From: a virus
DNA: 64,000 nt
Virus record (IMG/VR): IMGVR_UViG_3300032291_001492
Span: 31,466 to 95,465 of that record
Strand: one strand, 5' to 3'
The translations under genes were made by a program, and so were the position numbers. Under the pieces are notes generated by a model. It did no database searches. It worked only from the letters and a program-made list of their open reading frames with translations, and was not told the origin of the DNA. Below, in pieces: positions 21,731 through 57,190 of the stretch. Numbering within the stretch: the stretch's first letter is position 1; each line of letters opens with the position of its first letter.

Positions 21731-21745
21731 AAGATAAATAAATAT

Positions 21746-21898
21746 ATGAACGAAAACTTGGAAAATTCAAAGCAAGAGCAACCCGAAAAATCTGGGCCAA
21801 AACCCAATGAACACGGTGGGTTTTATTTTTCTTCTAGTGTTAAAATAACAGATCCTAATAGCAAAGAAATATTAGTCCACATGCGAGGCGATAACTAA
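21746..21898 (+). CDS. Small 50-aa protein, not in ORF track (MNENLENSKQEQPEKSGPKPNEHGGFYFSSSVKITDPNSKEILVHMRGDN)
   Basis: Fills the gap between two genes. TAAATA lies 5 nt upstream and the stop overlaps the next ATG (TAATG). Its C-terminal half resembles the N-terminus of the next protein. Confidence 0.65.
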   Translation: MNENLENSKQEQPEKSGPKPNEHGGFYFSSSVKITDPNSKEILVHMRGDN

Positions 21899-22518: not shown

Positions 22519-22549
22519 GATAAATAACAGATATCGGAGAAATTTTAAA

Positions 22550-23794: not shown

Positions 23795-23803
23795 GGAATA
23801 AAA

Positions 23804-24766: not shown

Positions 24767-24826
24767 TTAACGTCTTTGTATCTATCTAAATACTCTTAGG
24801 AGTACACATGGATACAAAGACATTGA
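24767..24826 (+). promoter_or_regulatory. RBS/start-codon-sequestering hairpin with a TAAATA late-promoter motif inside its 5' arm
   Basis: GTCTTTGTATCTAT (24772-24785) pairs with ATGGATACAAAGAC (24808-24821), with one G-U. Inner stem TACTC/GAGTA covers part of SD AGGAG. TAAATA is at 24787-24792. Confidence 0.65.
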
Positions 24827-25113
24827 TTTCCGAAGCTAAAGCCCGCTTCAATCACAACTCAGCCAAAGCATACTTAAAGGACAAGTACGATAGTAAGTTT
24901 ATCGTAGCAGACCAATCAGGGCTTTGGAGAGCCGACTTAGAAACTATTAATTTTTTAACTGCCTACACAGATGAATGGGTTATTTTAATTGACACCTTTA
25001 AAAATCCAGTCAGAGTAAACAGAGTTACTCTACTTGAAAAACTTTCTGAAACATACAAATCTGTTATGGATGATTGGTATACAGAATGGACTGAATTAGA
25101 GAAAAAAAGATGA
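24808..25113 (+). CDS. Hypothetical protein, first gene of the glycan-modification cluster
   Basis: SD AGGAG; 4-nt overlap with the next gene. Confidence 0.7.
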   Translation: MDTKTLISEAKARFNHNSAKAYLKDKYDSKFIVADQSGLWRADLETINFLTAYTDEWVILIDTFKNPVRVNRVTLLEKLSETYKSVMDDWYTEWTELEKKR

Positions 25114-25913
25114 GTAGAGGGGCATTATTATTTGCATTTAATAGTCCTAAATTTAACTACTATGACATGGCAGTAGCAACTGCTAAACGCATTAATCACT
25201 TTTTGGACATTCCGGTTACTATAGTAACGGATAACGAATCATTGCCTGAAAATCAAAGTTACACGTTTGACAATGTTATATTAGCAGAGGCTGACAAAAA
25301 CAATAAGCGTGACTGGGGTATGTGGATAAATAAAGGTCGATATCGTGCTTTTAATTTAAGTCCATATGATGAAACTTTGTTGTTAGATACTGATTATATG
25401 GTAAATTCAAATAAGTTATTAAAAACTTTTGATTTACCTACTGATTTTTGTTGCCATGATACAACTAGTTTCCTAATGTATCCTGATGCCGCACAAGAAG
25501 TACTCAGTTCATATAGTTTTAAAACACTATGGGCAACTGCAATTACTTTTAAAAAAACAAAAAGATCAAAATTAATATTTGATTGTTTAGAAATGGTTCA
25601 GAAAAATTTTGAACATTATGCAAACCTTCATGGTTTTATTTCTGTAACTTTTCGCAATGACTATGGATTGACGTTAGCTACTAGAATAGTTAACGGACAT
25701 ACTACTCCTATAGAAGACATAATTCCCTGGAATCTATTACACGCAGGTAAAAACACCACCATATATAAAAATAGTGATGATGAATTTAATACTGACTATA
25801 CTATAATGTTTGATAATTGGAATAAAGGTAAAATTCGCAAAGAATATATAATCATTAAAGATACTGACTTTCATGTTATGAACAAAGAAAACTTTTTGGA
25901 GTTAATCAAATGA
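25110..25913 (+). CDS. GT-A fold nucleotide-diphospho-sugar transferase-like protein
   Basis: 'SPYDETLLLDTDY' carries a DxD motif after a hydrophobic strand. N-terminal 'Y..MA...AKRI' helix and C-terminal 'HVMNK'. Confidence 0.65.
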   Translation: MSRGALLFAFNSPKFNYYDMAVATAKRINHFLDIPVTIVTDNESLPENQSYTFDNVILAEADKNNKRDWGMWINKGRYRAFNLSPYDETLLLDTDYMVNSNKLLKTFDLPTDFCCHDTTSFLMYPDAAQEVLSSYSFKTLWATAITFKKTKRSKLIFDCLEMVQKNFEHYANLHGFISVTFRNDYGLTLATRIVNGHTTPIEDIIPWNLLHAGKNTTIYKNSDDEFNTDYTIMFDNWNKGKIRKEYIIIKDTDFHVMNKENFLELIK

Positions 25914-26674
25914 CCAAAGGTTTTGTAATAATGGCACAAAATACAACAAATGTGAAATATACTAACTGTGCCAAAGCCTTAGAAAAAAGTATAAAGCGTG
26001 TTATGCCAAACGCTAATGTTACTATTGTTACTACTGAAATGCTGCCTCACGGAGATTTGGCTCCCGCGAGTGATTGGAAATTAATAAACGATTGGCAAGT
26101 CTATGAAGCAAGTCCATATGATGAGACTATTAAATTAGAAGCAGATATGTACATTCCTAGAAGTATTGAACATTGGTGGGATATATTATCTCAAAAAGAT
26201 GTTGTGGTGTGTAATACTATTAGGAATTTTAAACAAGAAATTTCAGATGTACGAGTATATCGTAGATTTATTGATGATAATAATTTACCAGATGTATATA
26301 ACGCAATTACATATTTTAAGAAATCGGATACAGCTAAACAATTTTTTTACATTGTGAGAAATGTATTTGATAATTGGAAAGAATATAAAGCTATACTAAA
26401 ATGCAATCCGGAAGAACCGGCGACAACTGATTGGGCGTATGCAATTGCATGTCATATTATTGGTATTGAAAAAACAATGTTACCTAACTTTACCGAAATG
26501 AGTATGGTACATATGAAACAATTTATTAACAATACCCCTACAGAAAATTGGACAGATACATTTGTTTATGAATGTTTGCCCAATCAAATTAGAATTCAAA
26601 CCGTACCGCAATTTTATCCTTTTCACTATCATATAAAGAACTTTAGTGATAAAATATTAGAAAGTATGAAATGA
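25910..26674 (+). CDS. GT-A fold glycosyltransferase-like protein, paralog of 25110 with degenerate DxD (EAD)
   Basis: 'SPYDETIKLEADM' and 'AITYFKKS' are shared with the upstream gene; C-terminal 'HMKQ' and 'PFHYH'. Confidence 0.6.
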   Translation: MTKGFVIMAQNTTNVKYTNCAKALEKSIKRVMPNANVTIVTTEMLPHGDLAPASDWKLINDWQVYEASPYDETIKLEADMYIPRSIEHWWDILSQKDVVVCNTIRNFKQEISDVRVYRRFIDDNNLPDVYNAITYFKKSDTAKQFFYIVRNVFDNWKEYKAILKCNPEEPATTDWAYAIACHIIGIEKTMLPNFTEMSMVHMKQFINNTPTENWTDTFVYECLPNQIRIQTVPQFYPFHYHIKNFSDKILESMK

Positions 26675-27027
26675 ATACCGAAGACACCTCATCAGATTTT
26701 GTAATAATATGGGAACCCCCTAAACTAGAAACACCTGAGTTTAGGTTATATTATGATAGCACCGGCGCAGTAATATGTTACACCGGTGACAAATCTATGC
26801 AGGGTAATTATATTGTAATTGATGCACATACATTTGCTGCCGCAAGACCTGATGTAAGAGTTATCGATGGTAGGATATCTAGTGTTGCACCTAATGCAGT
26901 AGTTTATAAATTAATGCCAGACAATATCGAAGGTAAAGACTGTCATATTGAAGATATAAGTGTATTAGTTGATGAATTATATACTGGCAAAAAGCAAAAA
27001 TGGAAATTAAACATATATGAACTCTGA
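26671..27027 (+). CDS. Hypothetical protein
   Basis: Overlaps both neighbours within the operon. Confidence 0.65.
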   Translation: MNTEDTSSDFVIIWEPPKLETPEFRLYYDSTGAVICYTGDKSMQGNYIVIDAHTFAAARPDVRVIDGRISSVAPNAVVYKLMPDNIEGKDCHIEDISVLVDELYTGKKQKWKLNIYEL

Positions 27028-27970
27028 TGATATTATTGATGTTGCGGATTTAGATTGTGTATATCTAAGCTATGATGAACCACAAAAAGAAGAATTTTGG
27101 ATTAAGATAAAAAATATGGTGCCTTGGGCAAAACGTGTTGATGGTGTAAAAGGAAGTGATGCCGCACACAAAGCCGCAGGTGAAGCAAGCGACACGGAAC
27201 GTTTCATTCTAATTGATGGCGACAATATGCCAAACGAAGATTTCTTCAATATTCAATTAGATTTTACAAACAAAGATCCTTCATTTAAGAAAGCACAGTT
27301 TCGTTGGAAAGCAGTAAACAGTATTAATGGTTTGCGTTATGGTAATGGTGGCATGAGTAGTTGGACAAAAGAATATGTTGCTAATATGAAAACGCATGAA
27401 CATCAAACAGAAGGTGATGTATCTCGCATTGCTGATTTCTGTATGGGAGGTAATGATAATTTATATTGGGCTATGTACAATTGCTACAGCACAACATACC
27501 CTAACTACACACCCTTTCAAGCATGGCGTGCAGGATTCCGTGAAGGTGTTAAAATGAGTTTAGACAGAGGTGCAAGACCTTCTGTTGAAGCGTTTAAAGA
27601 AACAGTAGCAAGTAGAAATTTAAATAATCTAACTATCTGGCACAACGTAGGTATGGATGTAGAAAACGGTGAGTGGGCGATAATGGGAGCCCGTATGGGT
27701 ACACATATGACTATGCTCACTGATTGGGACCATGCTAATGTTCAATGGTTTGATAATTACATTGAGATGTGGAATAAGATCAAAGACGAAGATCCATTAG
27801 AACTATCAGAAATATATGGCATCGAACTAAAAACTAAATTGGATTTGCCAATGTGTGCATTAGATAGTGACCAAAGTAAATTTTTTAAGCGTCACTATAA
27901 AGCAGATTTTCATAACTTAGATCCATTAGTAACTGAGATGGATGTAATTCGTAGAATTGAAGGATGGTAA
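27017..27970 (+). CDS. GT-A-like protein, paralogous to the C-terminal domain of the 1510-aa protein
   Basis: 'FILIDGDN' DxD motif. 'YLSYDEP', 'RVDGVKG..AAHKAA', 'N.INGL.YG' and 'WRAGFRE..K' recur in 53570-54239. Confidence 0.55.
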   Translation: MNSDDIIDVADLDCVYLSYDEPQKEEFWIKIKNMVPWAKRVDGVKGSDAAHKAAGEASDTERFILIDGDNMPNEDFFNIQLDFTNKDPSFKKAQFRWKAVNSINGLRYGNGGMSSWTKEYVANMKTHEHQTEGDVSRIADFCMGGNDNLYWAMYNCYSTTYPNYTPFQAWRAGFREGVKMSLDRGARPSVEAFKETVASRNLNNLTIWHNVGMDVENGEWAIMGARMGTHMTMLTDWDHANVQWFDNYIEMWNKIKDEDPLELSEIYGIELKTKLDLPMCALDSDQSKFFKRHYKADFHNLDPLVTEMDVIRRIEGW

Positions 27971-29364
27971 TGAGTAGCGAACAGCAACGTATAAAAGACA
28001 TTAAGATTAAAATTGAGAATGAAGTAGGTCCAACCTTCTGTCTTGCTAAATGGCACCATGTTACTATGTACCTACAGTCAGGAGAAACACATAGTTGTTA
28101 TCATCCACAACCTCATAAAATTCCAATTAGCGAGTTAATAGACAATCCTTCAGCGTTACATAATACACAACAAAAAAAAGAAGAACGTAAACTTATGTTA
28201 GATGGTGGTAAACCATCCGGTTGCCAGTATTGCTGGAACATTGAGAGTATGGGTCCTGACTATATTAGTGATAGACATATACGCAACGCTAGCATATTCA
28301 CAGAAGAACGATATGAACAGACTGTCAAAGGTCCTTGGAATCAAAATATAAATCCAGAATACTTAGAAATTAACTTTGGTAACGAATGTAATTTCAAGTG
28401 CGGCTATTGTCATCCTAAGTATTCTACTAGTTTCTATAATGAAATTAAAAAGAATGGCCCTGTCACTACAGTAAAAAATCATAGATGTGACATTGACTGG
28501 ATGACACTTTATCAACGTGAAGAAGAAAATCCATACGTTGATGCATTTTGGAAATGGTGGCCCGAATTACGTAAAACATTAAACATTATGCGAGTAACCG
28601 GCGGCGAACCTACGATGCATACTAGCACATGGAAATTGTTGAAAGAGATTGAGCAAGATCCTATGCCTTGGTTAGAACTAAATATCAATAGTAATTTAGG
28701 AACTAAAACTGCACTAGTAGAAAAATTAGCTGATAGTGTTAAAAAATTAGTAGACAATAAAAAAATACGTGCATTCAAATTGTTTACTAGTCTGGATACA
28801 TGGGGTGAACGTGCAGAGTACATTAGAACCGGATTAGATTTAGAATTGTGGGAAAAGAATTTTCACACATATTTGACCCGTACAGATAGTCCAATCACAT
28901 TTATGATAACCTTTAATATATTTTCAGTCACTACATTTAAGTCATTACTTGAAAAAATGTTAGAATGGCGTGAACAATATGGTTGGTATGAAGATATAAA
29001 AAGCCATCGTGTTAGATTTGACACCCCGTATTTGCGAGACCCAATTCAATACGATATGAATATATTGCCTAAAGAAGAATTCATGCCTTATATGAATGAT
29101 ACACTGGCATTTATGAAAGCTAATGTAGATGATGAAGCCAGTAATAAATTTACAACAGTTGAATATGAAAAATTTAAACGTGTTGTTGATTATATGGCTG
29201 AGACAGTATATCCAGAAAGTAAATTGATTGAAGGTCGAAGAGATTTTTATAATTGGTTTAATGAACTAGATGAACGCCGCGAAAATGATATGTTATCTGT
29301 GTTTCCTGAAATGTTAGGATTTTATAGATTATGTCAAGAGGTTAACCAAACACATCCAAAATGA
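27964..29364 (+). CDS. Radical SAM protein with N-terminal Twitch-like Cys domain (start probably 27970)
   Basis: CNFKCGYC (CxxxCxxC) and 'TGGEPT'. N-terminal 'FCLAKW.H...SCYH...CQYC'. Confidence 0.85.
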   Translation: MVMSSEQQRIKDIKIKIENEVGPTFCLAKWHHVTMYLQSGETHSCYHPQPHKIPISELIDNPSALHNTQQKKEERKLMLDGGKPSGCQYCWNIESMGPDYISDRHIRNASIFTEERYEQTVKGPWNQNINPEYLEINFGNECNFKCGYCHPKYSTSFYNEIKKNGPVTTVKNHRCDIDWMTLYQREEENPYVDAFWKWWPELRKTLNIMRVTGGEPTMHTSTWKLLKEIEQDPMPWLELNINSNLGTKTALVEKLADSVKKLVDNKKIRAFKLFTSLDTWGERAEYIRTGLDLELWEKNFHTYLTRTDSPITFMITFNIFSVTTFKSLLEKMLEWREQYGWYEDIKSHRVRFDTPYLRDPIQYDMNILPKEEFMPYMNDTLAFMKANVDDEASNKFTTVEYEKFKRVVDYMAETVYPESKLIEGRRDFYNWFNELDERRENDMLSVFPEMLGFYRLCQEVNQTHPK

Positions 29365-30638
29365 CAGAAAAAATATCAAACAATAAAGAATTCGATCTTA
29401 CGCAAAGTAAAACTTTTTGCATGTCTCCTTGGATACACTTGTACTCAAGTCCTAGTGGTGAGGCAGCACCGTGTTGTATTGCTGAATCATGTGCCCAGGG
29501 CGGAGTGGGTAACACTAGAACACAATCATTAATGGAAGTAGTTAATTCACCTAAAATGAATCAACTACGAAATGATATGCTATCTGGGGTAAAGAATAAA
29601 GAATGCGATAAATGTTACATGCATGAAGATCAAAACTTATTAAGTTCACGTAATATGCTTAATACTAGATTTGGTCCTAATTTCTACGATGAAGTTATTG
29701 AAAATACAAACATTGACGGATCATTGGCTAAATTTAAAATGAGATATTTTGATATTCGTTTTAGTAATATATGTAATTTTAAATGTAGAACATGCGGTTC
29801 CGGCTTTAGTACACAATGGGAACAAGAAGATTTAAAAAATAATGTTTACCATGCAAAAATAATTCCAAAAAATGATAATCCAGATTTTTTAAAAGAAATA
29901 TTTGATCAAATAGATTTTATGGAAACCGCTTATTTTGCGGGCGGTGAACCCTTAATCACAGAAGAACATTATATTTTGTTAGAAGAAATGATACGAAGAG
30001 GTCGTACTGATATCCAACTAAGGTATAATACAAACTTAAGCAATTTTAAATTTAAAAACAAAGATTTATTATCTTTATGGAAGCATTTTAGTAAAGGGGT
30101 CGATATATATGCAAGCATTGACCATTACGGAGAACGTGCAGAGTATATAAGACACGGAACAGATTGGGGAGTAGTAGAAAGTAATTTTTTACAAGCTAAA
30201 AAAACTCCCTATTTAAGAGTGAATATGAACACTGTATTAAGTGTTTTTAATTTTTTAACAATACATGAATTTTATCAATATCTAATAGATAAAAAATTAT
30301 ATACTCCTAATAGTAGTGTTTATACACTATATAACATGTCAACTCCTGATTATTTGGCTTGTCATATTTTGCCCTTAGATTATAAAGATGTTGGAAAAAA
30401 TAGTATTGAAAAAACTATGCGATTATTAAAAGATAAGAGATTTAAAAAACACCATATAACGCAACTATCAGATACTATTCCTTGGATTTATTCAAAAGAT
30501 TCATGGGATGAAAACAAATATCAATTTAGAAAAGAAGTAAAAAGATTAGACTCAATTAGAGGGGAAGATTTTTCAAAAACTTTTCCTGAATTAGCTCCGT
30601 TGTTACTTCCAGATCGTAATAAATTTTTCCCTATATGA
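29361..30638 (+). CDS. Radical SAM protein with N-terminal Twitch-like domain
   Basis: N-terminal 'FCMSPW.H...PCC...CDKC'; core CNFKCRTC and 'AGGEP'. Confidence 0.88.
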   Translation: MTEKISNNKEFDLTQSKTFCMSPWIHLYSSPSGEAAPCCIAESCAQGGVGNTRTQSLMEVVNSPKMNQLRNDMLSGVKNKECDKCYMHEDQNLLSSRNMLNTRFGPNFYDEVIENTNIDGSLAKFKMRYFDIRFSNICNFKCRTCGSGFSTQWEQEDLKNNVYHAKIIPKNDNPDFLKEIFDQIDFMETAYFAGGEPLITEEHYILLEEMIRRGRTDIQLRYNTNLSNFKFKNKDLLSLWKHFSKGVDIYASIDHYGERAEYIRHGTDWGVVESNFLQAKKTPYLRVNMNTVLSVFNFLTIHEFYQYLIDKKLYTPNSSVYTLYNMSTPDYLACHILPLDYKDVGKNSIEKTMRLLKDKRFKKHHITQLSDTIPWIYSKDSWDENKYQFRKEVKRLDSIRGEDFSKTFPELAPLLLPDRNKFFPI

Positions 30639-31861
30639 ACAAAAATTATCTATTAAATGATAGCAAAACGTTTTGTATGTTTCCGTGGGTACATCTAAAT
30701 GTAACTCCCAAAGGTGATATATATCCTTGCTGTAGTAATGACTATACGCAACCCTTCGGAAACACAAAAGAAATAACATTAAAACAGGCATTTAACAGTG
30801 AACCAATGAAGCAATTGCGATTGGACATGTTAAATGACAAACCTAATAAAATATGCAATTTCTGTTACAAGCACGAAGAAGCAGGTCCGCATAGTTTTAG
30901 AAATTACAGTAAAGAACATTTTGGAAAACACTTTGATGAAGTTGTGCCCACTACGTTAGAAGATGGAACTGTTCCTGAATTTAAGATGCATTACTTTGAC
31001 ATTCGTTTTAGTAACATATGTAATTTCAAATGTAGAACATGCGGTAGTGAGTTTAGCAGTCAGTGGGGAGCAGAGATGCGAGCTAATCATGATCCTAAGC
31101 ATCCCATTATTATTCATGCTGATGAAAAAGGTAATTTATTGCGTGAAGTACTAGAACAAGTAGAACACATTGATTTGGCATATTTTGCAGGTGGAGAGCC
31201 CACACTTACCGAAGAGCATTATATAATGCTTGAAGAAATGATACGTAAAGGCCGCACTGACATTACATTACGCTATAACACAAACGCTAGTAATATCAAG
31301 TTTAAAGATTATGATTTACTAGACATGTGGAAGCACTTTAAGAAAATTGAATTGAGTTGCAGTGTTGACCATTATGGTGAACGTGCAGAATGGCTACGTC
31401 ATGGTACTGATTGGGGATTAGTTGAAAGTAATCTGTTAAAGTTCCGTGAATTAGATTATGTTAGTTTTCAAATGAACACTGTATTCAGTATCTTTAACTA
31501 TAGTACAATTGGTGAATTTTATCAGTACTTAAAAGACAAGAATATTATTAGAGCAGAAGATTGGTATCATAGTTTGTACTTGGCAGTACATCCTAGTTAT
31601 TATAGTGCTAAGAGTCTACCCAAAGAATTAAAAATTGAAGCCGCAAAGAAAGCACTTGATTGGGCAGATAAGAATACAGGTGATCATACCTCATTATCAC
31701 GCTTAGTTACTGATGCAGTAAACTTTGCTACAGACGATGACATATGGACTGAAAATAAAGAAACTTTCATGTTGCATACAGGTTCAGGAGATAGAATTCG
31801 TAATGAAAGTTTCTGGAAAACATTCCCTGAATTAAATAAATTGATGGATTTAACGGAGTAA
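30635..31861 (+). CDS. Radical SAM protein with N-terminal Twitch-like domain
   Basis: N-terminal 'FCMFPW.H...PCC...CNFC'; core CNFKCRTC and 'AGGEP'. Confidence 0.88.
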   Translation: MNKNYLLNDSKTFCMFPWVHLNVTPKGDIYPCCSNDYTQPFGNTKEITLKQAFNSEPMKQLRLDMLNDKPNKICNFCYKHEEAGPHSFRNYSKEHFGKHFDEVVPTTLEDGTVPEFKMHYFDIRFSNICNFKCRTCGSEFSSQWGAEMRANHDPKHPIIIHADEKGNLLREVLEQVEHIDLAYFAGGEPTLTEEHYIMLEEMIRKGRTDITLRYNTNASNIKFKDYDLLDMWKHFKKIELSCSVDHYGERAEWLRHGTDWGLVESNLLKFRELDYVSFQMNTVFSIFNYSTIGEFYQYLKDKNIIRAEDWYHSLYLAVHPSYYSAKSLPKELKIEAAKKALDWADKNTGDHTSLSRLVTDAVNFATDDDIWTENKETFMLHTGSGDRIRNESFWKTFPELNKLMDLTE

Positions 31862-31863
31862 AA

Positions 31864-33135
31864 ATGCAAGACCCAATAGTTGTAGAGAATTTAGTAAAAC
31901 ATGGTAAACACTTTTGTGTATTACCCTGGGTCCACTTTCATTCATGGCCTGATGGCAGAGTTATGCCTTGCTGTGTTGCTGATAGTAATATGCCAGTGGC
32001 TGAGATTAAAAAAGATGAATCTATCATACAAATGGTTAATAGTGAAGATTTCAAAAAAATGCGTACTGCTATGTTAGCTGATGAACCAGTTGAAGCATGT
32101 AAGCGTTGCTATGACCTAGAGTTAATGGGTACTTGGACAATGCGTTTAAGTCATAATAAACGCCGAGGATTAGAGTATGTTAATCATATAAGTGAAATTA
32201 CAGAAGATGATGGTAGTTTGACGGAATTCAAAATGAAATACATGGATTTACGTTTTAGTAATATGTGTAACATGAAGTGCCGTAGTTGTGGTCCTGGCTG
32301 TAGTAGTTTATGGGCACAAGAGTTTATTGATGAACGTGGCGTGGATGTATACGAAGAATATTTTCACACAAAAAAAATTGTAATTAACAAAGCAGAAGAA
32401 ATGGGCTTTATGAATAAATTAAAGCCATATCTAAAAGATGTTACTGAGGTTTATTTTGCTGGTGGTGAAATTATTATCACCCCGGAACATTATGAATGTT
32501 TAGATTATTGGATTGAGAATGGCTTAAACGAACAAGTCGAACTAACATACACAACTAACTTTAGTTCGTTGAAATACAAAGACAAAGATTTAATTGGTTA
32601 TTGGAAGAAATTCCCCCAACTTAAAATATGGGCTAGTTTAGATGCAGAAGGCGCGGTCGCAGAAACTATTCGTAAAGGAACAGATTGGGACAGAATTGTT
32701 AAAAACATCAAAACATTAAAAGAGCAAGTACCACACGCACAGTTTCAAATCACTCCTACTATTAGTATTTGGAATGTGTTTCATTTCCCTGATTTCTTTG
32801 ACTATATGATTGAACAAGGATTTATTGATACAACATCAAGTCCTAGATTTAATCTAGCAACTAATCCATGGTATGCAAATATTATGATATTACCTGTTCA
32901 CGTTAAACGTAGATTAGCAGAGTTATATCGGGTGTATCAAAACAAATATAAAGACAACGTTGATATCTACAATGGTTTTAAGATGATTATATACAACTTA
33001 ACTGTAGGTGAAGAAAACAAAGGTGGAATCTTAGAATTCAAACAGTTTAATGATGAGTTAGATGAATTCAGAGATGAAAAATTAATAGACATTATTCCAG
33101 AATTAAAAGAGGTATATGAATGGGCAAAAAGCTAA
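31864..33135 (+). CDS. Radical SAM protein with N-terminal Twitch-like domain
   Basis: N-terminal 'FCVLPW.H...PCC...CKRC'; core CNMKCRSC and 'AGGE'. Confidence 0.88.
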   Translation: MQDPIVVENLVKHGKHFCVLPWVHFHSWPDGRVMPCCVADSNMPVAEIKKDESIIQMVNSEDFKKMRTAMLADEPVEACKRCYDLELMGTWTMRLSHNKRRGLEYVNHISEITEDDGSLTEFKMKYMDLRFSNMCNMKCRSCGPGCSSLWAQEFIDERGVDVYEEYFHTKKIVINKAEEMGFMNKLKPYLKDVTEVYFAGGEIIITPEHYECLDYWIENGLNEQVELTYTTNFSSLKYKDKDLIGYWKKFPQLKIWASLDAEGAVAETIRKGTDWDRIVKNIKTLKEQVPHAQFQITPTISIWNVFHFPDFFDYMIEQGFIDTTSSPRFNLATNPWYANIMILPVHVKRRLAELYRVYQNKYKDNVDIYNGFKMIIYNLTVGEENKGGILEFKQFNDELDEFRDEKLIDIIPELKEVYEWAKS

Positions 33136-41981: not shown

Positions 41982-41987
41982 AGGAAT

Positions 41988-45067: not shown

Positions 45068-45102
45068 ATTATTGGGTAATATCTTATATTATTAAATACA
45101 GT

Positions 45103-47355: not shown

Positions 47356-48119
47356 CAAATAAAGAAAAAATTATGTTGGTTGCTGGATGCAGCCACACCT
47401 CAGGATCAGAAATAAACGGTCTAGAAGATAGTGTATACAATAGACAGAAATCTTATGGCAATCAATTAGCATATATGATGGGTTACACACCTGTTAATAT
47501 AGCAGAACCCGGCTCTACAAACCCTACAATTGCCCGTAGTATATTACAATGGTTTAGTGAAAAGTACAATCCTTTTAGTATGGAAGTATATGTAGTAGTA
47601 GGGTGGACAGAAAGTACACGTATGGAAGTTCCATTTCATCGTCCGTGTCATTATAATCATCATTGTCCATTTGGTGATTATTATGCAAATACTAGCACAA
47701 ACTTTCTACGTATTAATATGGGTTGGGCTGGTAGCGATAACGAAGAAAAACAATTAATACCTGACTATCATAGATTTATGGCACAAAACGAAAAATATTT
47801 GGAAATTGTTAGTGCTAATGCAATACTACAAATTCAATATTTTTTACAATCAAAGGATGTTGATTATATAATGTGCAATGTCATGCATATGTTTACTGAA
47901 AAAGATAAACATACAAAATTCTACACGGATCAAATAGATACATCTAAATACTTCAACATGTTGGATAATGATCAATCTTTTTATCCCAAATATAAAAATT
48001 TAGGTTACACTAATCCCAAAGCCAAATATTGGCATCACAATGAAATTCCACACGCATTACATGCAGAAGAATTATACAAATTTATAGAGAGTGAAAATGT
48101 TTTTAATCAGATGGTTTAA
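47352..48119 (+). CDS. SGNH/GDSL-like protein
   Basis: 'AGCSHTSGSE', 'NIA.PG.TN', 'VVGWT...R.E' and C-terminal 'WHH....H'. Confidence 0.5.
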   Translation: MTNKEKIMLVAGCSHTSGSEINGLEDSVYNRQKSYGNQLAYMMGYTPVNIAEPGSTNPTIARSILQWFSEKYNPFSMEVYVVVGWTESTRMEVPFHRPCHYNHHCPFGDYYANTSTNFLRINMGWAGSDNEEKQLIPDYHRFMAQNEKYLEIVSANAILQIQYFLQSKDVDYIMCNVMHMFTEKDKHTKFYTDQIDTSKYFNMLDNDQSFYPKYKNLGYTNPKAKYWHHNEIPHALHAEELYKFIESENVFNQMV

Positions 48120-48195
48120 AAATTTAGTCAGAGAATACAAATATCGTAAGCGTATCAAAGAATTGCGAAAGCGTGATCCGTTCATTTATAAGTAA
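48097..48195 (+). CDS. Small basic 32-aa peptide, not in ORF track (MFLIRWFKNLVREYKYRKRIKELRKRDPFIYK)
   Basis: Purine-rich 'GAGAGTG' upstream; fills the gap before the carbamoyltransferase; ends in PFIY. Confidence 0.55.
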   Translation: MFLIRWFKNLVREYKYRKRIKELRKRDPFIYK

Positions 48196-48198
48196 TCT

Positions 48199-49698
48199 AT
48201 GGAATATATAGGAATTAGCGCAGGTTTCCATGATGCCGCTATGGCAGTTGTTAATGACCACGGAGATATTTTATTTGCAAGTCATAGTGAACGTTATTGT
48301 GGAGATAAGCACACTAAACATCTAAACATGTCAATTGTTAAAGATGCATTAACTCATGTAAAAGACAGACAAAACACAGAGATTCATTATTATGAACGTC
48401 CGTGGATGAAGTATCTACGTCAACTACGTGCAGGTGAACCTACAAGTATTGCTAATATATCTGCAAAAAATATTATTGGTGAAGGCTTATTATATCAGTT
48501 ACAAGATGGTCGTGGTAACAAAGTTTACACACACAATCATCACTTGAGTCATGCGGCTGCTGGCTTTCAAACAAGTTCGTTTAATGATGCTACTGTAGTG
48601 GTAGTTGACGCTATTGGTGAGTTTGATACTATTACTATTTGGGATGCATGTTATGACAAAGATGGTATAGCCCGTTATAAAAAGATTTTTAGTAAGAAAT
48701 ATCCCAACTCAGTTGGACTATTCTATAGTGCAATGACAGACAAAGTTGGTCTGCGTCCTATGGATGAAGAATACATTCTCATGGGAATGGCAGCGTACGG
48801 TGAGCCTAAATATATGCAAGAAATGATGGATGAATATATTCACAGTCTCAAAGATTTTGAATTCAAACAGAATCTTCATATAGGTGCATCACCTAATTTC
48901 TTACCTAATGCTAATGATATGGATATTGCATGTTCTGCACAACATATGGTAGAATTTTTTGTTAAACAAATCATGGGTAAAGCTAGATTGATAGGTAAGA
49001 GTCGTAACTTAGTATACGGAGGTGGTGTAGCACTTAACTGTTTAGCTAATAGATTGTTAGGAGATTATTTTGAGAATATTTGGATTATGCCTAATCCTGG
49101 CGACGCCGGTAGTAGTCTCGGGGCTTGCGCTCTTGGCTATGGGAGAAAACTTAACTGGACTAATGCTTATCTCGGTCATAATATACACGGTAATTATCCT
49201 GTTAACAGGTTACTTGATGAATTACTTACTGGCAAGATTGTGGGAGTGGCATCCGGACGTGCCGAATTTGGCCCACGTGCCTTGGGTAACCGTTCGCTCT
49301 TGGCGGATCCAAGAGGAAATGAAATCAAAGATAAAGTAAATGAAATTAAACGTAGACAAAAATTCAGACCATTCGCCCCAGTTATTTTGGAGGAACTGGC
49401 TGATATGTACTTTGATATGCCTAATGGCTGGAGTAATAATAGGTATATGCAGTCAGTCGCTCGTTGTAGGCATCCTGAGTTATTTCCTGCTATCGTTCAT
49501 GCTGACGGCACTAGTCGTGTACAAACTGTACCGAAAGATGGAAGTGGAATCAGAGAACTACTAGAGAAATGGTATGTAATGACTGAATGCCCGATGTTAT
49601 TAAACACTAGTCTTAACATACGTGGTGAGCCTATGGTTAATGATAGAAGTGATGCGGATCGATTTGAAAAACTGTATGGCATAAAAGTATTATCATAA
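48199..49698 (+). CDS. O-carbamoyltransferase (CmcH/NodU/TobZ family)
   Basis: 'GISAGFHDAA', 'HHLSHAA', 'GGVALNC..N', 'GRAEFGPRALGNRS.LADPR', 'FRPFAP', 'H.DGTSRVQTV', 'LLNTSLN..GEP'. Confidence 0.93.
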   Translation: MEYIGISAGFHDAAMAVVNDHGDILFASHSERYCGDKHTKHLNMSIVKDALTHVKDRQNTEIHYYERPWMKYLRQLRAGEPTSIANISAKNIIGEGLLYQLQDGRGNKVYTHNHHLSHAAAGFQTSSFNDATVVVVDAIGEFDTITIWDACYDKDGIARYKKIFSKKYPNSVGLFYSAMTDKVGLRPMDEEYILMGMAAYGEPKYMQEMMDEYIHSLKDFEFKQNLHIGASPNFLPNANDMDIACSAQHMVEFFVKQIMGKARLIGKSRNLVYGGGVALNCLANRLLGDYFENIWIMPNPGDAGSSLGACALGYGRKLNWTNAYLGHNIHGNYPVNRLLDELLTGKIVGVASGRAEFGPRALGNRSLLADPRGNEIKDKVNEIKRRQKFRPFAPVILEELADMYFDMPNGWSNNRYMQSVARCRHPELFPAIVHADGTSRVQTVPKDGSGIRELLEKWYVMTECPMLLNTSLNIRGEPMVNDRSDADRFEKLYGIKVLS

Positions 49699-49706
49699 GT
49701 AGATAC

Positions 49707-52700
49707 ATGCTAAGAGATGTATTTTATTACGGTAAAAAACCTAACGTTCACCCAAAAGAAAAATTTGCAACTTCATTAGAAGATGCAAGAAAACAATCTA
49801 CTACAGAACATTTTTGGATAATCAATGAATATTGTGATTATCGTGGATTTGAATGGGATTTCGATTTTGAATTTTTACCAGACGAAGATGTATGGGCAGA
49901 AGAACATATAAATGTTTGGCCTAGTCAACATCAAAAAGATAGTGGTACCTGGTTATGTAATACAGATAATATATCCTCATTAATAATTTATCGGGCTGAT
50001 GTTAATCCTGTAAAGCGTAAAAACGAACTAAACATCTATTGGGTTATCAGAGATGTTATTGATAATACTAAATTTGATTTTAGTTGGCATCCTGACCCCA
50101 CAGACCCTCCATACATTTATATTTTCCCTACTAATTGGAACCCGGTAGGCGGCCCTGAATATCACATTGAAGGTGCGACAGAAAAGAAATACATTGCTAC
50201 CCAGATTGGTGTTACTATTCCTCAAATGGATAAATGGGAAGTCCCCGATTATATTGATGTAAGTGATTTTGATTTTAGTTGGGTTCCTCATCCCGACGAT
50301 CCTCCGTTTATATATGAGTTTGGTACGCAATGGCAGAAGACTTGCGGACCTCGTTATATAGTTGATGATGCCCAAGAAGTTAAGTATGTCAGTAATATTC
50401 GTGTTAAAGCACTAGCCAACATGACTAATTGGACATTACCTACCAATGTAGCTATTGATGATTTTGATTTTAGTTGGCACCCTGATTCAACAAGTCCCCC
50501 CTACATTTATAATTTTCCAACGCAGTGGGCAATGTCAGGGGGTCCAGTTTACACAGTAGAGGGTGCAACAGAAGTTAAGTATGTTGAAGACATGGTAGCA
50601 AAAGCAATTGCTGATCCTGAACGAAAGAATTGGGAAGTACCTGCATTTATTGACGTAGATAATTTTGACTTTAGCTGGCATCCATATGCCGAAGATGAAC
50701 CGTATATCTATCAATTTGGAACTCAATGGCAGAAGACAGGTGGACCTCGATTCTTAACTCCCGGAGTTCATAAGAATAGCCCAATAAAATATGTTGATAC
50801 AAGAATTATCAAATCAACTCGTTTGGCCTCACGTAAAAATTTTGCTATATTAAACAATCTCAGAATTGCTGAGTTTGACTATTCTTGGCACCCTGATACA
50901 ACAGAAGAACCATTCATCTATGTTTTTGGTAATCAACATTATCCAGGTGAAATCATGCCGACGATTGAATATGTTGTTCCTGGTGCAACTCAAATAAAAT
51001 ATGTCAATGACATTATTGCAACATTAGGACCTGACAGAACTAACTGGGTGATTATTCAACCTATCAATGAAGATAAGTTTGACTTCAGTTGGAAACCTAA
51101 CCCTAAAGACCCTCCGTATATCTATATATGGGGTAACTCTTATATAGATGGTAAGATTAAATCTACTATTGAATATCATGTTGACGGTGCGACAGAAAAG
51201 AAATACATGGACGAACTTGTTGAAGTGATTCCTGAATGGGATCGTTGGGACATTCCTAAAAACATTGACACAAGTAAATTTGATTTCACTTGGAGACCGG
51301 ATCCACTTGATGCTGATTTCATTTGGCAGTTTGGCACACAACATCAGAAGACAGGTGGTCCTCGTTATATAGTAGATGATGCTACTGAAATAAAATACGT
51401 AGAAGAAAACAGAGCAACCGCTATATTTACATCAATGAAACATTGGGAAATTCCAGAAGGGTTAGACATATCTGAGTTTGATTTTAGCTGGCATCCGGAT
51501 GCAACAGAAAAACCATACATATATGTTTTTGGAACTCAATGGGCTTTGACCGGTGGCCCTAAATATATTTCGCCTGGTGCAACAGAAGTGAAATATATTG
51601 ATGCACCTATTGCAAAGGCTGCACCTAATAGACAACACTGGATTATACCTGACAACATAGCAGTTGAAGAATTTGATTTTAGTTGGCATCCATATGCTGA
51701 AGATAAGCCATATATCTATCAATTTGGTACTCAATGGCAAAAGACGGGCGGCCCTCAATACATTACGCCTGGATCAGATGAAATGTCTCCGATCAAATAT
51801 GTTGATACTCGTATTTTAAAGGCAAGACAGTTAAAGTCTAAGGGAAGTTTTTCTGTAGTAGGTGATATCAAAATTAAAGATTTTGATTACTCATGGCATC
51901 CTGATAGTACTGAACAGCCATACATATATGTATTTGGTAACCAATGGCATCCTGCTGAACTAGAACCTACTATTGAATATCACGTGCCCGGAGCAACAAC
52001 TAAAAAATATATTCACGATATTGTTGCAACAACGGGTCCTGATATGAATCTATGGGATGTTCCTGAAGGTTTTAACAAAAATACGTTTGATTTTACTTGG
52101 AGACCTGATCCAACAAGTCCTCCCTACATTTATCAATTTGGTTCATTGATTGATAGAAATGATGGCCCTAGATATAATGTGCCCAATAATGACGGTGAAG
52201 TTGTATTCTTAGAAAGAAAAGAAATAGCATTACCCACTTCAGTTAAGGTTCCGCAATATTATATTGAAACCACACTAGAGGATCTTGTTAATAAACATCC
52301 AAACGAAATCTTTTGGGCGTTAAACAATGACATTGATTATGAGAAATTTGATTTTGATTGGAGACCTCAGATAGTTAATATTCAATGGGAAAACGAATAC
52401 GTATATGTGTTTGGTTCTCCTGAGAGTATACTTACTCAAACATATTTTGTTAATGCCGCTATGTATTTACAAGGCAATAAAGATTTTAAATTTGTTGAAA
52501 ATGAAACAATTAGTGAAAAATATCTAGCAACTTTATTCAAAAAATCTGATATGTTTTTTGTTGATAGAGGCAACAAAGAAGCACAAGAACGTTTTGACAA
52601 ATTAAAACAACGTTTCCCTACTATACAAAAGACAAGATATTTGAACACTTGGGTAGACACAATCAATCGTTGTATTAATCGTGCAACAACTAATTTATGT

Positions 52701-54239
52701 TGGATACTAAACAGTGAATTAGTATACGATAATTTTGATTTTGATTATTACCCTAACCCTTGGCAGATGAAAATGATTCAAGTGTTTGGAACTCAATGGA
52801 GTCATTGGGGTACTACCTTTATGGTTAATCGTGACACATTTGCTAAAGATACCAAATATGTTAAAGTCATTGAACACTTAAACAATCTTAACTTTGTAAA
52901 AGACCGTAGAGCAATTTCAACAAATGTATTGTACGATAAAATATATATTGACCATGGAAACAAACCTGTTCCTACTGATACTACAGTGATTCAATATGAA
53001 GAAAGTTATTTAAATACATTCAAAAAATTGTTAGACAAATTACCTGAAAAGAAAGAACATTTTGTTTGGATCACTAGTTCAATATGCGACTACACTGGAT
53101 TTGATTTTACTTATATTTGTGATCCATTTGCACGTGAACAGCTTCATGTATTTCCTAGCGACAAGCAGAAATTTGGAGATACATTTTTAATAAATGTTAA
53201 CAAATTACGTGAGTTGATTTCTGAAATGAATGTATTAGAAGATTACAACAAAGTAAATTATAATCAACACCAACGTGCAAAACGTTTACCCAGTCCAATT
53301 ATTATTACAGAAGGTGATACACATGTCTCTAGTATTGACACTAATTTTGATTTCCCTTATGCTACGTTTGTCACGATTGACAACAAAGACATACAAGTAA
53401 TTGATTCTGAACCCATGAGTTTATGGGATATAGAGAGTAAAACTATTCAGGTTACTAGTGTAGGTGGAACACGTATTGTTGTGCCTAAAGAAATTAAACA
53501 ACACTTCAAACGTGAATTATACGACTATCCATACATTAGCACAAATAGTAAACTTGCAAAATCTACCCCAATGGATATTGTGTTCTTAAGTAACGGTGAA
53601 ACAGGTGCAGATGAAAACTATGATCATTTAATAAAAACTACACAAGGTTTGCCTAATCGTGTAGTAAGAGTAGATGGTGTAAAGGGTCGTGTGCAAGCAT
53701 ATCATGCGGCAGCAGAAGCAAGCAATACTCCCTGGATGTTCACAGTTTTTGCTAAATTAAAAGTTAGTAACAAGTTTGATTGGAACTGGCAACCAGACAG
53801 ATTACAGATACCTAAACATTATGTATTTCACGCTAAGAATCCTGTCAATGGTTTAGTATACGGTCATATGGCTATGATTGCTTATAATAAAAAATTAACA
53901 CTTGCTAATAAAGGTAAAGGGCTTGACTTTACTATGGACGATGAGCATGAGGTTTTAGAAATCAATTCAGGAACTGCAAATTTTAATACGGATGAATGGT
54001 CAACTTGGCGTACTAGTTTCCGTGAAGCATTAAAGTTACGTGCTAATGAGGATCAGGTCAGTAAAGATAGACTTGATATTTGGTTAACTGTTGGTATGAG
54101 TAAATTCAACGAATATAGCATGGAAGGTGCTCAACATGCAGTTGAATACTATGAAGAAGTAAATGGTGACTTTGATAAGTTAAAACTGTCTTATGACTGG
54201 CCTTGGTTACGTGCTTACTTTGATAAGAAATACAAGTAA
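49707..54239 (+). CDS. 1510-aa protein with tandem 'FDFSWHP' repeats and GT-A-like C-terminal domain(s)
   Basis: Eleven ~57-60-aa tandem units 'W.IP..ID...FDFSWHPD....PYIY.FG.QW...GGP.Y...GATE.KY'. C-terminal domain is similar to the 27017 protein. Confidence 0.7.
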   Translation: MLRDVFYYGKKPNVHPKEKFATSLEDARKQSTTEHFWIINEYCDYRGFEWDFDFEFLPDEDVWAEEHINVWPSQHQKDSGTWLCNTDNISSLIIYRADVNPVKRKNELNIYWVIRDVIDNTKFDFSWHPDPTDPPYIYIFPTNWNPVGGPEYHIEGATEKKYIATQIGVTIPQMDKWEVPDYIDVSDFDFSWVPHPDDPPFIYEFGTQWQKTCGPRYIVDDAQEVKYVSNIRVKALANMTNWTLPTNVAIDDFDFSWHPDSTSPPYIYNFPTQWAMSGGPVYTVEGATEVKYVEDMVAKAIADPERKNWEVPAFIDVDNFDFSWHPYAEDEPYIYQFGTQWQKTGGPRFLTPGVHKNSPIKYVDTRIIKSTRLASRKNFAILNNLRIAEFDYSWHPDTTEEPFIYVFGNQHYPGEIMPTIEYVVPGATQIKYVNDIIATLGPDRTNWVIIQPINEDKFDFSWKPNPKDPPYIYIWGNSYIDGKIKSTIEYHVDGATEKKYMDELVEVIPEWDRWDIPKNIDTSKFDFTWRPDPLDADFIWQFGTQHQKTGGPRYIVDDATEIKYVEENRATAIFTSMKHWEIPEGLDISEFDFSWHPDATEKPYIYVFGTQWALTGGPKYISPGATEVKYIDAPIAKAAPNRQHWIIPDNIAVEEFDFSWHPYAEDKPYIYQFGTQWQKTGGPQYITPGSDEMSPIKYVDTRILKARQLKSKGSFSVVGDIKIKDFDYSWHPDSTEQPYIYVFGNQWHPAELEPTIEYHVPGATTKKYIHDIVATTGPDMNLWDVPEGFNKNTFDFTWRPDPTSPPYIYQFGSLIDRNDGPRYNVPNNDGEVVFLERKEIALPTSVKVPQYYIETTLEDLVNKHPNEIFWALNNDIDYEKFDFDWRPQIVNIQWENEYVYVFGSPESILTQTYFVNAAMYLQGNKDFKFVENETISEKYLATLFKKSDMFFVDRGNKEAQERFDKLKQRFPTIQKTRYLNTWVDTINRCINRATTNLCWILNSELVYDNFDFDYYPNPWQMKMIQVFGTQWSHWGTTFMVNRDTFAKDTKYVKVIEHLNNLNFVKDRRAISTNVLYDKIYIDHGNKPVPTDTTVIQYEESYLNTFKKLLDKLPEKKEHFVWITSSICDYTGFDFTYICDPFAREQLHVFPSDKQKFGDTFLINVNKLRELISEMNVLEDYNKVNYNQHQRAKRLPSPIIITEGDTHVSSIDTNFDFPYATFVTIDNKDIQVIDSEPMSLWDIESKTIQVTSVGGTRIVVPKEIKQHFKRELYDYPYISTNSKLAKSTPMDIVFLSNGETGADENYDHLIKTTQGLPNRVVRVDGVKGRVQAYHAAAEASNTPWMFTVFAKLKVSNKFDWNWQPDRLQIPKHYVFHAKNPVNGLVYGHMAMIAYNKKLTLANKGKGLDFTMDDEHEVLEINSGTANFNTDEWSTWRTSFREALKLRANEDQVSKDRLDIWLTVGMSKFNEYSMEGAQHAVEYYEEVNGDFDKLKLSYDWPWLRAYFDKKYK
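50030..52190 (+). repeat. Coding tandem repeat array (~170-190 bp unit, 11 copies) inside the 1510-aa gene
   Basis: Recurrent 'ttttgattttagttggcatcc' and 'tttggaactcaatggcagaagacaggtgg'-type segments. Confidence 0.85.
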
Positions 54240-56403: not shown

Positions 56404-56412
56404 ATATATAAT
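56384..56412 (+). promoter_or_regulatory. Sigma70 promoter with an embedded TAAATA motif
   Basis: TTGACA-N17-TATAAT; TAAATA at 56401-56406. Confidence 0.75.
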
Positions 56413-56430
56413 AACTTAAGGACTATATTT

Positions 56431-56778: not shown

Positions 56779-56797
56779 AATTCTAGCTAAATACTAG

Positions 56798-57151: not shown

Positions 57152-57155
57152 TTAC

Positions 57156-57184: not shown

Positions 57185-57190
57185 GTAAGT

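Follow-up and report, generated by a model that had tools for sequence, protein, structure and literature searches.

We analyzed the last 64 kb of a 95.5-kb virus contig from IMG/VR (record IMGVR_UViG_3300032291_001492, positions 31,466 to 95,465). We refer to this stretch as the window and number it from its first base; the estimated completeness of the contig is 27%. Directly after three tail-fiber-type genes, the window carries a block of genes (positions 24808-54239) in which glycosyltransferase (GT)-like proteins and nucleotide-sugar enzymes are combined with seven radical S-adenosylmethionine (SAM) enzymes, and its reading as a sugar-building and sugar-editing pathway is well supported. 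Judged by its genes, the source virus is an uncultured giant phage of the Rak2-like aquatic jumbo myovirus lineage. Its baseplate wedge protein shares about 30% identity with the counterparts in Rak2-like jumbo myoviruses, namely, Serratia phage BF, the Erwinia pEa_SNUABM phages, and Agrobacterium phage Atu_ph07, and a megablast search of the first 9.3 kb against phage records returned no match. Upstream of the window, the contig has genes for the major head protein, portal, baseplate hub, and tail lysin. Within the window, the order runs from the baseplate wedge gene through a 6463-amino-acid (aa) open reading frame (ORF), the three fiber-type genes (21898-24760), and the block to a metallophosphoesterase, a GT4 enzyme, a transfer-messenger RNA region, and PstS.

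The block holds 23 listed ORFs, all on the + strand, plus one 34-codon gene that had previously been missed (Table 1). Seventeen of the 22 junctions overlap, 12 of them by the 4-nt ATGA and five more by 7 to 16 nt. Gaps longer than 10 nt occur only before 45103 (35 nt) and before 48199 (79 nt), and the second of these is taken up by the conserved 34-codon ORF. A first-pass annotation, made from the sequence without database searches, had described about 22 co-oriented, ATGA-joined genes, in good agreement with this count. All-versus-all BLAST sorted several of the products into paralogous groups: 25110-25913 with 25910-26674; 27017-27970 with the C terminus of the 1510-aa protein; and 34091-35410 with 39176-40123, 40120-41208, and the N-terminal half of 43181-45067. 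In 19-residue hydrophobicity windows, none of the 23 proteins reached transmembrane grade except for one borderline 19-mer in g19 (43181-45067), and no signal-like hydrophobic stretch was present in any of them. Pfam likewise revealed no initiating phosphoglycosyl transferase, flippase or transporter, or polymerase family of the Wzx/Wzy or ABC polysaccharide type among the block proteins, which bears out the earlier remark that flippases, polymerases, and signal peptides were not obvious here.

Table 1. Genes of the block and the adjoining fiber-type genes, in window coordinates.
Feature	Position	Strand	Basis
Three tail-fiber-type genes (206, 414, 318 aa)	21898..24760	+	Pfam, PHROGs, composition; directly 5' of block
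g01, conserved 101-aa protein, no known domain, no Cys	24808..25113	+	TAAATA 21 nt 5' of start
g02 and g03, paralogous putative GT-A (GT8/Nucleotid_trans-like)	25110..26674	+	Paralogy, alignment, ESM Atlas
g04, conserved 118-aa protein, no assigned function	26671..27027	+	Conservation in relatives
g05, predicted GT-A-fold domain (residues 2-165, DxD = IDGDN) plus helical C-terminal domain	27017..27970	+	AlphaFold2 (AF2) model
g06-g09, four paralogous N-terminal-twitch radical SAM enzymes (466, 425, 408, 423 aa)	27964..33135	+	NF033640, Pfam SPASM, alignment
g10, 324-aa radical SAM enzyme, usual domain order	33120..34094	+	CxxxCxxC at 25-32
g11, predicted GT-B-fold glycosyltransferase with E...TEK motif	34091..35410	+	AF2 model, Foldseek, VIA-align
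g12, extended short-chain dehydrogenase/reductase (SDR), NAD-dependent epimerase/dehydratase family (GDP-fucose-synthase-like)	35407..36384	+	PF01370, E 3.9e-43
g13, putative SGNH-like esterase/acyltransferase	36381..37265	+	Invariant GCS, GxN, H blocks; weak DUF6071 match
g14, B12-dependent radical SAM enzyme, TokK/CysS/KedN5 type	37252..39183	+	PDB, Pfam, NCBIfam
g15 and g16, further g11-type GT-B members	39176..41208	+	blastp paralogy; near-invariant E...EK in alignment
g17, SGNH-like protein	41205..41981	+	Alignment pattern
g18, nucleoside diphosphate (NDP)-sugar 6-dehydrogenase (UDP-glucose/GDP-mannose dehydrogenase family)	41988..43184	+	PF03721, PF00984
g19, g11-type GT-B domain (~90-370) fused to class I methyltransferase with NPPH	43181..45067	+	Pfam, BLAST, sequence
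g20, second B12-binding radical SAM enzyme, 750 aa	45103..47355	+	PF02310, PF04055; TAAATA 10 nt 5' of start
g21, SGNH-like protein	47352..48119	+	Alignment pattern
34-codon gene	48091..48195	+	ORF listing; conservation; adjoins g22
g22, O-carbamoyltransferase, NodU/TobZ/NovN family	48199..49698	+	PF02543, PF16861, PDB
g23, 1510-aa protein	49707..54239	+	BLAST, repeat analysis, alignment

The products of g06 to g09 belong to NF033640 (N_Twi_rSAM). Against a curated cutoff of 170 bits they scored 312.7, 381.8, 369.5, and 358.1 bits over model positions 1-398 (E = 3.9e-93, 4e-114, 2.2e-110, and 6.1e-107, respectively). Pfam SPASM lies at residues ~14-86 and Radical_SAM begins at ~124, so the twitch domain is N terminal in all four enzymes, which corrects how they had first been read. 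Their alignment contains four invariant cysteines attributed to one auxiliary cluster (C20, C39, C82, and C85), followed by the CxxxCxxC motif (C138, C142, and C145) and then GGE. Among PDB sequences, the best profile match (E = 2.5e-5) covered the radical SAM core only, and in the literature searched we found no paper characterizing an NF033640, or N-twitch, radical SAM member. The neighboring g10 scored only 27.8 bits against NF033640 and is not a member; it has five conserved C-terminal cysteines (261, 280, 303, 308, and 310) that are twitch/SPASM-like. Together with g10, the four family members account for the five Twitch/SPASM enzymes that had been noted at first.

Two further radical SAM enzymes, g14 and g20, had been called B12 dependent, and the domain matches agree. 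With PF02310 (B12-binding) and PF04055 (radical SAM), g14 is of the TokK/CysS/KedN5 type: in the PDB it matched TokK (7kdx) at E = 1.7e-79 over ~460 residues (25-485) and CysS (9n1b) at E = 1.2e-48, and against NF033712, the KedN5 family, it reached 243.8 bits (E = 3e-72), below the 700-bit cutoff. By these matches, g14 is clearly a predicted relative of B12-dependent radical SAM C-methyltransferases, TokK/CysS-like rather than GenK-like. Enzymes of the TokK/CysS type methylate sp3 carbon iteratively (review, PMC12931638). The best NCBIfam match of g20 was TIGR03975, a RiPP (peptide synthesized ribosomally and modified posttranslationally) C-methyltransferase family, below its cutoff, and its best solved relative was QCMT (9ccb; E = 2.4e-8, a weak match). 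A likeness to BtrN/NeoN and GenK had been suggested for the radical enzymes; no such family appeared among the NCBIfam or PDB matches, and these analogies were dropped, the twitch enzymes forming their own family and the B12 enzyme having TokK and CysS as its closest solved relatives. Separately, the contig has a conventional radical SAM/SPASM-type gene of 363 aa upstream of the window (G000:C1:3627-4718, - strand; locus L150). It adjoins the major head protein gene (L150:4747-5943), and its best NCBIfam matches, all below cutoff, are peptide or metalloenzyme maturases.

Glycosyltransferase folds were recovered by modeling. The AF2 model of g11 (predicted local distance difference test [pLDDT], 78; predicted template modeling score, 0.81) returned only GT-B proteins as top Foldseek matches (probability, 0.96 to 1.00), and VIA-align over residues 1-438 gave Z scores from 13.1 (root mean square deviation [rmsd], 5.6; 282 residues aligned) down to 10. 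EXT1, GtfB, T4 BGT, and the α1,3-fucosyltransferase 5zoi (Z = 12.0) were tied. The T4 beta- and alpha-glucosyltransferases scored 12.7 and 12.1, and the fucosyltransferases FUT9 (8d0o) and FUT13 (7yro) scored 11.6 and 10.8, so that the fucosyltransferases, too, were tied with many other GT-B families. The E...TEK motif, which we take to resemble the fucosyltransferase (FucT) motif, was not accompanied by the CAZy GT10 signature: Pfam searches with 26 GT-B family members gave chance matches only, with no match to PF00852 at E ≤ 1. The profile of the GT-B family (A2) found nothing meaningful among PDB sequences. We regard the GT-B fold of g11 as settled at the level of the model, and it would extend by paralogy to g15, g16, and g19's N-terminal domain, the other members of the four-paralog family that g11 founds. 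The four TEK-motif proteins that had been noticed as GT-like are thus paralogs, and the one modeled has a GT-B fold.

The model of g05 (pLDDT, 73) has the features of a GT-A fold, a Rossmann-like domain with a DxD motif. Foldseek placed the PBCV-1 capsid glycosyltransferase 2p6w first (E = 1.9e-3), followed by TarP, SunS, and mostly other GT-A enzymes, and VIA-align gave Z scores of 8.1 to 8.9 over 127 to 143 residues (best Z, 8.9; rmsd, 3.5; 142 aligned). These scores are modest, and nucleotidyltransferases of the same superfold match as well. The IDGDN motif is conserved across the g05 family except in the C-terminal copy of g23. For g02 and g03, which share a conserved D-x-D-like motif (LDTDY and LEADM, respectively), the nearest named ESM Atlas clusters were PF03407/PF01501 at 0.96, a lead only; neither protein had a match in Pfam or among PDB sequences, and hhalign against g05 gave a probability of 0.5%. 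Profiles of the g05 family (A3) and of g02/g03 (A5) found nothing meaningful among PDB sequences. Three or four GT-A-like proteins had been proposed at the outset. That proposal holds for g05 by model and for the C terminus of g23 by homology; for 25110-26674 it comes down to the language-model lead and the DxD-like motif. Both families are viral in their distribution, with ESM Atlas clusters that are 96 to 100% viral for g05 and an almost exclusively viral family for g02.

The last gene, g23, encodes ~11 tandem repeats of 65 to 70 aa (FDFSWHPD..PPYIY.FG.QW..GGP.Y; residues ~105-860). Several degenerate GT-A-like units follow the repeats, and the g05-like domain that lacks the DxD comes last. 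The length of the matched stretch varies greatly among relatives. The protein had no match in Pfam or PHROGs, and its repeat region had none, by tblastn, in cultured phages. We considered g23 as a possible structural fiber; its serine-plus-threonine (S+T) content of 11.7% is enzyme-like, unlike that of the fibers.

The epimerase, dehydrogenase, methyltransferase, and carbamoyltransferase named at first sight were all recovered: g12 in the SDR epimerase family, with NCBIfam matches that all fall below equivalog cutoffs; g18 as an NDP-sugar dehydrogenase that keeps the catalytic-Cys motif GACHPRD and scores 158.8 bits (E = 1.7e-46) against TIGR03026, below its cutoff of 189.8; the methyltransferase domain of g19, which is HemK/MTS-like with a motif of the amino-/amide-N-methylating type and weak PrmC/HemK matches; and g22. 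Both Carbam_trans domains of g22 exceed their cutoffs (PF02543, E = 1.8e-30, 107 versus 24 bits; PF16861, E = 1.3e-47, 161.9 versus 27 bits). Among PDB sequences, g22 matched NovN (9s2t; E = 3.8e-52), GdmN, and TobZ (E of ~3e-30), and it reached 122.8 bits against a NodU equivalog cutoff of 1000. NovN, TobZ, and NodU carbamoylate sugar hydroxyls. The three SGNH-like proteins proposed earlier are recognized from an invariant pattern in their alignment (A6) of GCS, N68, GxN (N76), and H271; Pfam E values were 0.02 to 0.19, far below cutoff, and the family profile found nothing among PDB sequences.

The 34-codon gene encodes a peptide with a basic amphipathic N terminus and a near-invariant C terminus, KELRKRDPFIYK. 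It is conserved across many viral loci, and the cultured Ralstonia jumbo phage RsoM2USA and one bacterial metagenome-assembled genome (MAG; L133) have it as well. Among the related loci gathered here, 46 encode a relative of the peptide. In 28 of the 46, a carbamoyltransferase gene directly follows the peptide gene, and in 6 more it directly precedes it. Across the last 12 codons in 16 loci, 118 codon changes were synonymous and 10 were nonsynonymous. The ORF is a real micro-gene under strong purifying selection, and its link is to the carbamoyltransferase rather than to the radical SAM genes.

Turning to the genomic setting, the first-pass annotation had drawn attention to Ser/Thr-rich proteins upstream, and composition supports it: S+T is 22.7% in 22550-23794 and 27.4% in 23804-24760 versus 8 to 16% in the cluster proteins. 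The 414-aa and 318-aa fiber-type proteins are Thr/Gly rich, and the former carries a Peptidase_G2 intramolecular-chaperone domain (Pfam/PHROGs). The 167-nt spacer that follows the 6463-aa ORF (21731-21897) contains a GC-stem hairpin and T-run (~21792-21830), which suggests that the giant gene is transcribed apart from a unit made up of the fiber genes and the cluster. Six strong sigma-70-like sites (TTGACA-N16-18-TAYAMT) occur versus 0.46 expected, all on the + strand within the last 8 kb (56384-62967), and the structural and cluster region of the window has none; as a motif distribution, this marks a predicted transition from that region into one of early type. TAAATA is found 8 to 45 nt upstream of 10 of 39 gene starts, including g01 and g20, versus 1.1 expected. 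The full T4 late box, TATAAATA, was not enriched (3 matches versus 13.9 expected), and a generic promoter/terminator scan was uninformative. By these motifs, the pattern fits late coexpression of the block with the fiber genes.

Synteny with tail genes, proposed earlier as a check, was kept in about 10 related contigs, in a complete relative, and in a cultured phage. The order from the fibers through g01 to g10 is conserved in the ~10 IMG/VR contigs at 51 to 100% protein identity, and the distal part varies among them in its GT-B genes, methyltransferase, and dehydrogenase fusions. In a complete 364-kb relative with terminal repeats (G001), the layout is unchanged between the giant ORF and a homolog of the 1510-aa protein, and the variable section of this genome carries other genes, including a sugar-aminotransferase fragment. 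By analogy, a fixed core with a variable tail is the pattern of exposed-glycan loci. A second, more distant group (L010-L020) keeps a smaller module of a g05-like gene, four twitch enzymes, the small radical SAM enzyme, the second B12 enzyme, and an SGNH gene. In RsoM2USA, the order is a fiber gene (g25-like), a small ORF, g02-like, g03-like, a small ORF, g05-like, g06-like, and g23C-like. Identity in this core is 25 to 42% (41% for the g05-like protein and 35% for the g06-like twitch enzyme). In RsoM2USA numbering the core is ORF353-348, with ORF350 and ORF349 as the respective homologs of g05 and g06. The core adjoins the gene for a giant structural protein that was identified in RsoM2USA virions by mass spectrometry (PMC8504454). 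Elsewhere in that genome lies a second module of SGNH, g06-like, SGNH, SGNH, and carbamoyltransferase (46%) genes. When g05 and g08 were used as tblastn queries in cultured phages, the only matches were RsoM2USA, two Vibrio phages, and one marine single-cell virus record. In metagenomes, g05 and g07 each have at least 8000 homologs, and both families are very abundant in aquatic samples.

The twitch family also occurs in other genomic settings. In the cultured T4-like Vibrio phage K566 (L149; OZ196521.1, 152328-183239), two GT8 genes confirmed by Pfam and a GT4-like gene are interspersed among four to five radical SAM genes of the twitch type. Bacterial members of the family come mainly from MAGs of Bdellovibrionota and Flavobacteriales, where they often form tandem arrays, and some loci combine N-twitch genes with carbamoyltransferase, DegT, GT2, and GDSL genes. 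Two Bdellovibrionota MAG contigs (L103 and L104) have five tandem N-twitch genes beside a PhoX alkaline phosphatase, and L103 also has a Ppx/GppA phosphatase. With bacterial arrays beside phosphatases and Pho-box-associated genes following the phage cluster, a link to phosphate limitation is possible from gene neighborhood. The 108-kb contig of the Gammaproteobacteria MAG MED685 (L133) contains ~7 N-twitch genes, a GFO/IDH/MocA-radical SAM fusion, an SDR, a g23C-like GT-A gene, a 2-oxoglutarate-Fe(II) oxygenase, and the micropeptide. Given this phage-like arrangement, the contig could be a prophage or could come from a misbinned phage.

The case for a sugar pathway is good because the block encodes eight GT-like proteins or domains (one GT-A and one GT-B modeled, the rest by paralogy or as a lead) alongside nucleotide-sugar enzymes and a sugar-type carbamoyltransferase, and because twitch radical SAM genes recur with GT, SGNH, and carbamoyltransferase genes in unrelated phages. 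The first-pass annotation had pictured cytoplasmic sugar tailoring modeled on aminoglycoside pathways; the cytoplasmic tailoring is upheld by the folds, the nucleotide-sugar enzymes, and the lack of membrane proteins, and the aminoglycoside analogy falls away. From the observed gene content, two folds, synteny, and promoter distribution, we infer the following steps and acceptor. The GT-A-type proteins g02, g03, and g05 and the GT-B-type proteins g11, g15, g16, and g19 would assemble an oligosaccharide from host nucleotide sugars, some of them first converted by the phage NDP-sugar dehydrogenase (to a uronic acid) and SDR. By C-H abstraction, g06 to g09 and g10 may oxidize, epimerize, or deoxygenate, for example, the glycan or its nucleotide-sugar precursors. 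The TokK/CysS-like g14 and the second B12 enzyme, g20, would attach C-methyl groups, and N-methylation would fall to the NPPH methyltransferase of g19. O-carbamoylation would be carried out by the carbamoyltransferase with its micropeptide partner, and the SGNH proteins might handle esters. The likeliest acceptor would be a virion protein, either the Thr/Gly-rich fibers just upstream or the 6463-aa fiber protein.

We favor, at a probability of roughly 40%, a late-expressed, translationally coupled, cytoplasmic line for glycan assembly and editing that belongs to the tail-fiber module and has a virion protein as its acceptor. A virion-protein target is preferred because the linkage to fibers persists across very different phages in a late-type context, because the g05 and g02 families are virally restricted, and because of the fixed-core/variable-tail pattern. 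Several points weigh against this reading. No glycan or acceptor is visible in the sequence. The assignment of g02 and g03 as glycosyltransferases is a weak lead, and the promoter classes were read from motifs only. The N-twitch enzymes have no close characterized relative, and every step given to them is a guess because no characterized member of the family was found. In the L010-L020 group, the genes 5' of the radical SAM core do not match the fiber genes of this phage; in K566, the N-twitch/GT8 cluster adjoins PagP and LpxC-like genes, not tail genes; and bacterial N-twitch arrays show a modest association with sugar genes.

A bolder version of the virion-glycan proposal is unlikely, in our estimation, as a whole. 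Here the N-twitch enzymes would be a new glycan-editing radical class, each paralog activating a different C-H bond of a fiber-attached sugar chain, and together with the B12 C-methylases and the micropeptide-assisted carbamoyltransferase they would equip abundant aquatic jumbo phages with a hypermodified, strain-variable protein glycan. We know of no characterized virus or cell that makes such a glycan.

The block might instead remodel a host envelope glycan, an account to which we assign a low probability. Its soluble enzymes would act at the inner membrane face on lipid-linked lipopolysaccharide (LPS) or capsule intermediates that host flippases export, for example, as a block to superinfection or to prevent progeny from sticking to debris. 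Many LPS-core glycosyltransferases lack transmembrane helices and are peripheral proteins, g02 has GT8/Nucleotid_trans as its nearest named clusters, and a Pho-linked pair of predicted lipid-remodeling genes (metallophosphoesterase and GT4) lies 3' of the block. Such host-surface remodeling was proposed for the pelagimyophage "host recognition cluster," in which glycosyltransferases, UDP-glucose dehydrogenase, and radical SAM cassettes stand beside tail fibers and O-chain modification is favored (PMC7029224). However, the 23 proteins include no initiating phosphoglycosyl transferase, flippase, polymerase, ligase, or membrane anchor, and the block sits in the late structural region without an early-type promoter. 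Enzymes that feed into diverse host pathways would not be expected to belong to families as nearly exclusively viral as those of g05 and g02, and the core stays with fiber genes across phages of very different hosts. We keep envelope remodeling under consideration because soluble glycosyltransferases can use lipid-linked intermediates and because PagP and an LpxC-family gene are the neighbors of the N-twitch/GT8 cluster in K566.

Another candidate substrate is the fiber polypeptide itself. The Thr/Gly/Ala/Asn-rich fibers could be edited directly by epimerization, C-methylation, and amide N-methylation, as in proteusins, with the glycosyltransferases adding sugars separately. According to reviews, twitch/SPASM enzymes mostly modify peptides or proteins. 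The best matches of g20 are a RiPP C-methyltransferase family and the protein-modifying QCMT, and g19 has the NPPH motif of amide/amino N-methylases with its weak PrmC/HemK matches. The composition of the fibers resembles that of proteusin cores, and the separate radical SAM-SPASM gene adjoins the major head protein gene on the same contig. Direct editing is nonetheless improbable, as the supporting family matches all fall far below cutoffs, neither a RiPP recognition element (RRE) nor a leader-like region was detected, N-twitch genes are again accompanied by GT8, SGNH, and carbamoyltransferase genes at sites lacking an adjacent fiber gene, and g14 has its closest relatives in TokK and CysS, which methylate small molecules.

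We also doubt that the product is a soluble RiPP-like compound or cofactor, built by modifying, glycosylating, and carbamoylating the 34-residue peptide or another scaffold. There is some precedent in mycofactocin, a radical SAM-SPASM product that is oligoglycosylated by a GT-A enzyme and methylated; all of the block's enzymes are soluble, and the micro-gene is real and under strong purifying selection. However, the peptide tracks the carbamoyltransferase (34 of 46 loci) rather than the radical SAM genes, and loci fetched with a GT-B query, where the listed neighbors are GT-B-like or NDP-sugar-dehydrogenase-like, contain it too. The peptide has no cysteine and no obvious core/leader split, and in bacterial N-twitch arrays it was found only in L133. 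By the standards of a RiPP cluster, a conserved micropeptide is present but is coupled to the carbamoyltransferase, and no RRE-type family was matched in Pfam/NCBIfam scans. It would also be hard to explain why a soluble-metabolite pathway stays welded to tail-fiber genes.

Hypermodification of phage DNA, with GT-B enzymes glycosylating modified bases and the other enzymes tailoring the DNA-bound sugar, is very improbable: all of the proteins are cytoplasmic, NPPH-type methyltransferases include DNA amino-methylases, and the g11 model aligns with the T4 glucosyltransferases as well as with any GT-B protein (Z = 12.7 and 12.1), but the GT-B matches are nonspecific ties, no DNA-binding or base-flipping domain was detected in the block, and DNA-modification genes are normally early or middle whereas this block lies in the structural region without early-type promoters. 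In addition, no hydroxymethylpyrimidine-forming enzyme was found in the complete relative G001, whose sole PF00303 gene passes the thymidylate synthase equivalog cutoff (338.3 versus 327 bits); this phage's own genome is 27% complete.

If the product of the pathway sits on the fibers, it would bear on host recognition, resistance to proteases and grazers, and the diversification of large environmental phages. Because the core is conserved in RsoM2USA, a cultured phage, the question can be tested directly, and the N-twitch enzymes and the micropeptide of the carbamoyltransferase are new targets for enzymology. In the literature searched, we found no paper on a radical SAM/glycosyltransferase block in jumbo phages, the cluster is not described in the "moraphage" or S-SCSM2R papers, and the only description found was a positional one in pelagimyophages.

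That description (Zaragoza-Solas et al. 2020, PMC7029224) concerns a host recognition cluster that pelagimyophages and cyanomyophages carry within their structural region. The island is hypervariable, and its tail fibers are accompanied by glycosyltransferases, UDP-glucose dehydrogenase, and radical SAM cassettes. The likeness to the block is positional and compositional. The phages with a host recognition cluster are T4-like, with genomes of ~150 to 250 kb, whereas the block belongs to a Rak2-like jumbo lineage; that paper does not analyze the radical SAM genes at the family level and favors the host O-chain as the target. A second point of comparison is the virion glycosylation systems of mycobacteriophages (Freeman et al. 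2023, as cited in PMC12619734). In these and in the chlorovirus system (PBCV-1 A64R; PDB 2p6w), virus-encoded cytoplasmic glycosyltransferases decorate capsid or tail proteins without host membrane machinery. Attachment has been demonstrated there, whereas here the tie to the fiber genes is genetic linkage only. To our knowledge, the mycobacteriophage and chlorovirus systems comprise a few glycosyltransferases and methyltransferases and include no radical SAM enzyme, B12-radical SAM enzyme, or carbamoyltransferase.

At the level of single enzymes, NF033640 has so far been a bioinformatic definition only, and here it is represented by four tandem paralogs inside a glycosyltransferase-rich phage operon. 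With respect to TokK, ThnK, CysS, and KedN5, g14 is a relative and not a member, and the known substrates of those enzymes are carbapenem and aryl-methoxy small molecules, not glycans. Compared with NodU, TobZ, and NovN, g22 is shorter (499 versus 576 to 702 aa) and is coupled to a conserved peptide of 33 to 34 residues, an arrangement that we have not seen described for the characterized enzymes. A pathway with seven radical SAM enzymes, four of them from a family in which we found no characterized member, lies outside anything characterized. What sets the block apart from known phage glycan genes is this set of seven radical SAM enzymes together with its micropeptide-coupled carbamoyltransferase.

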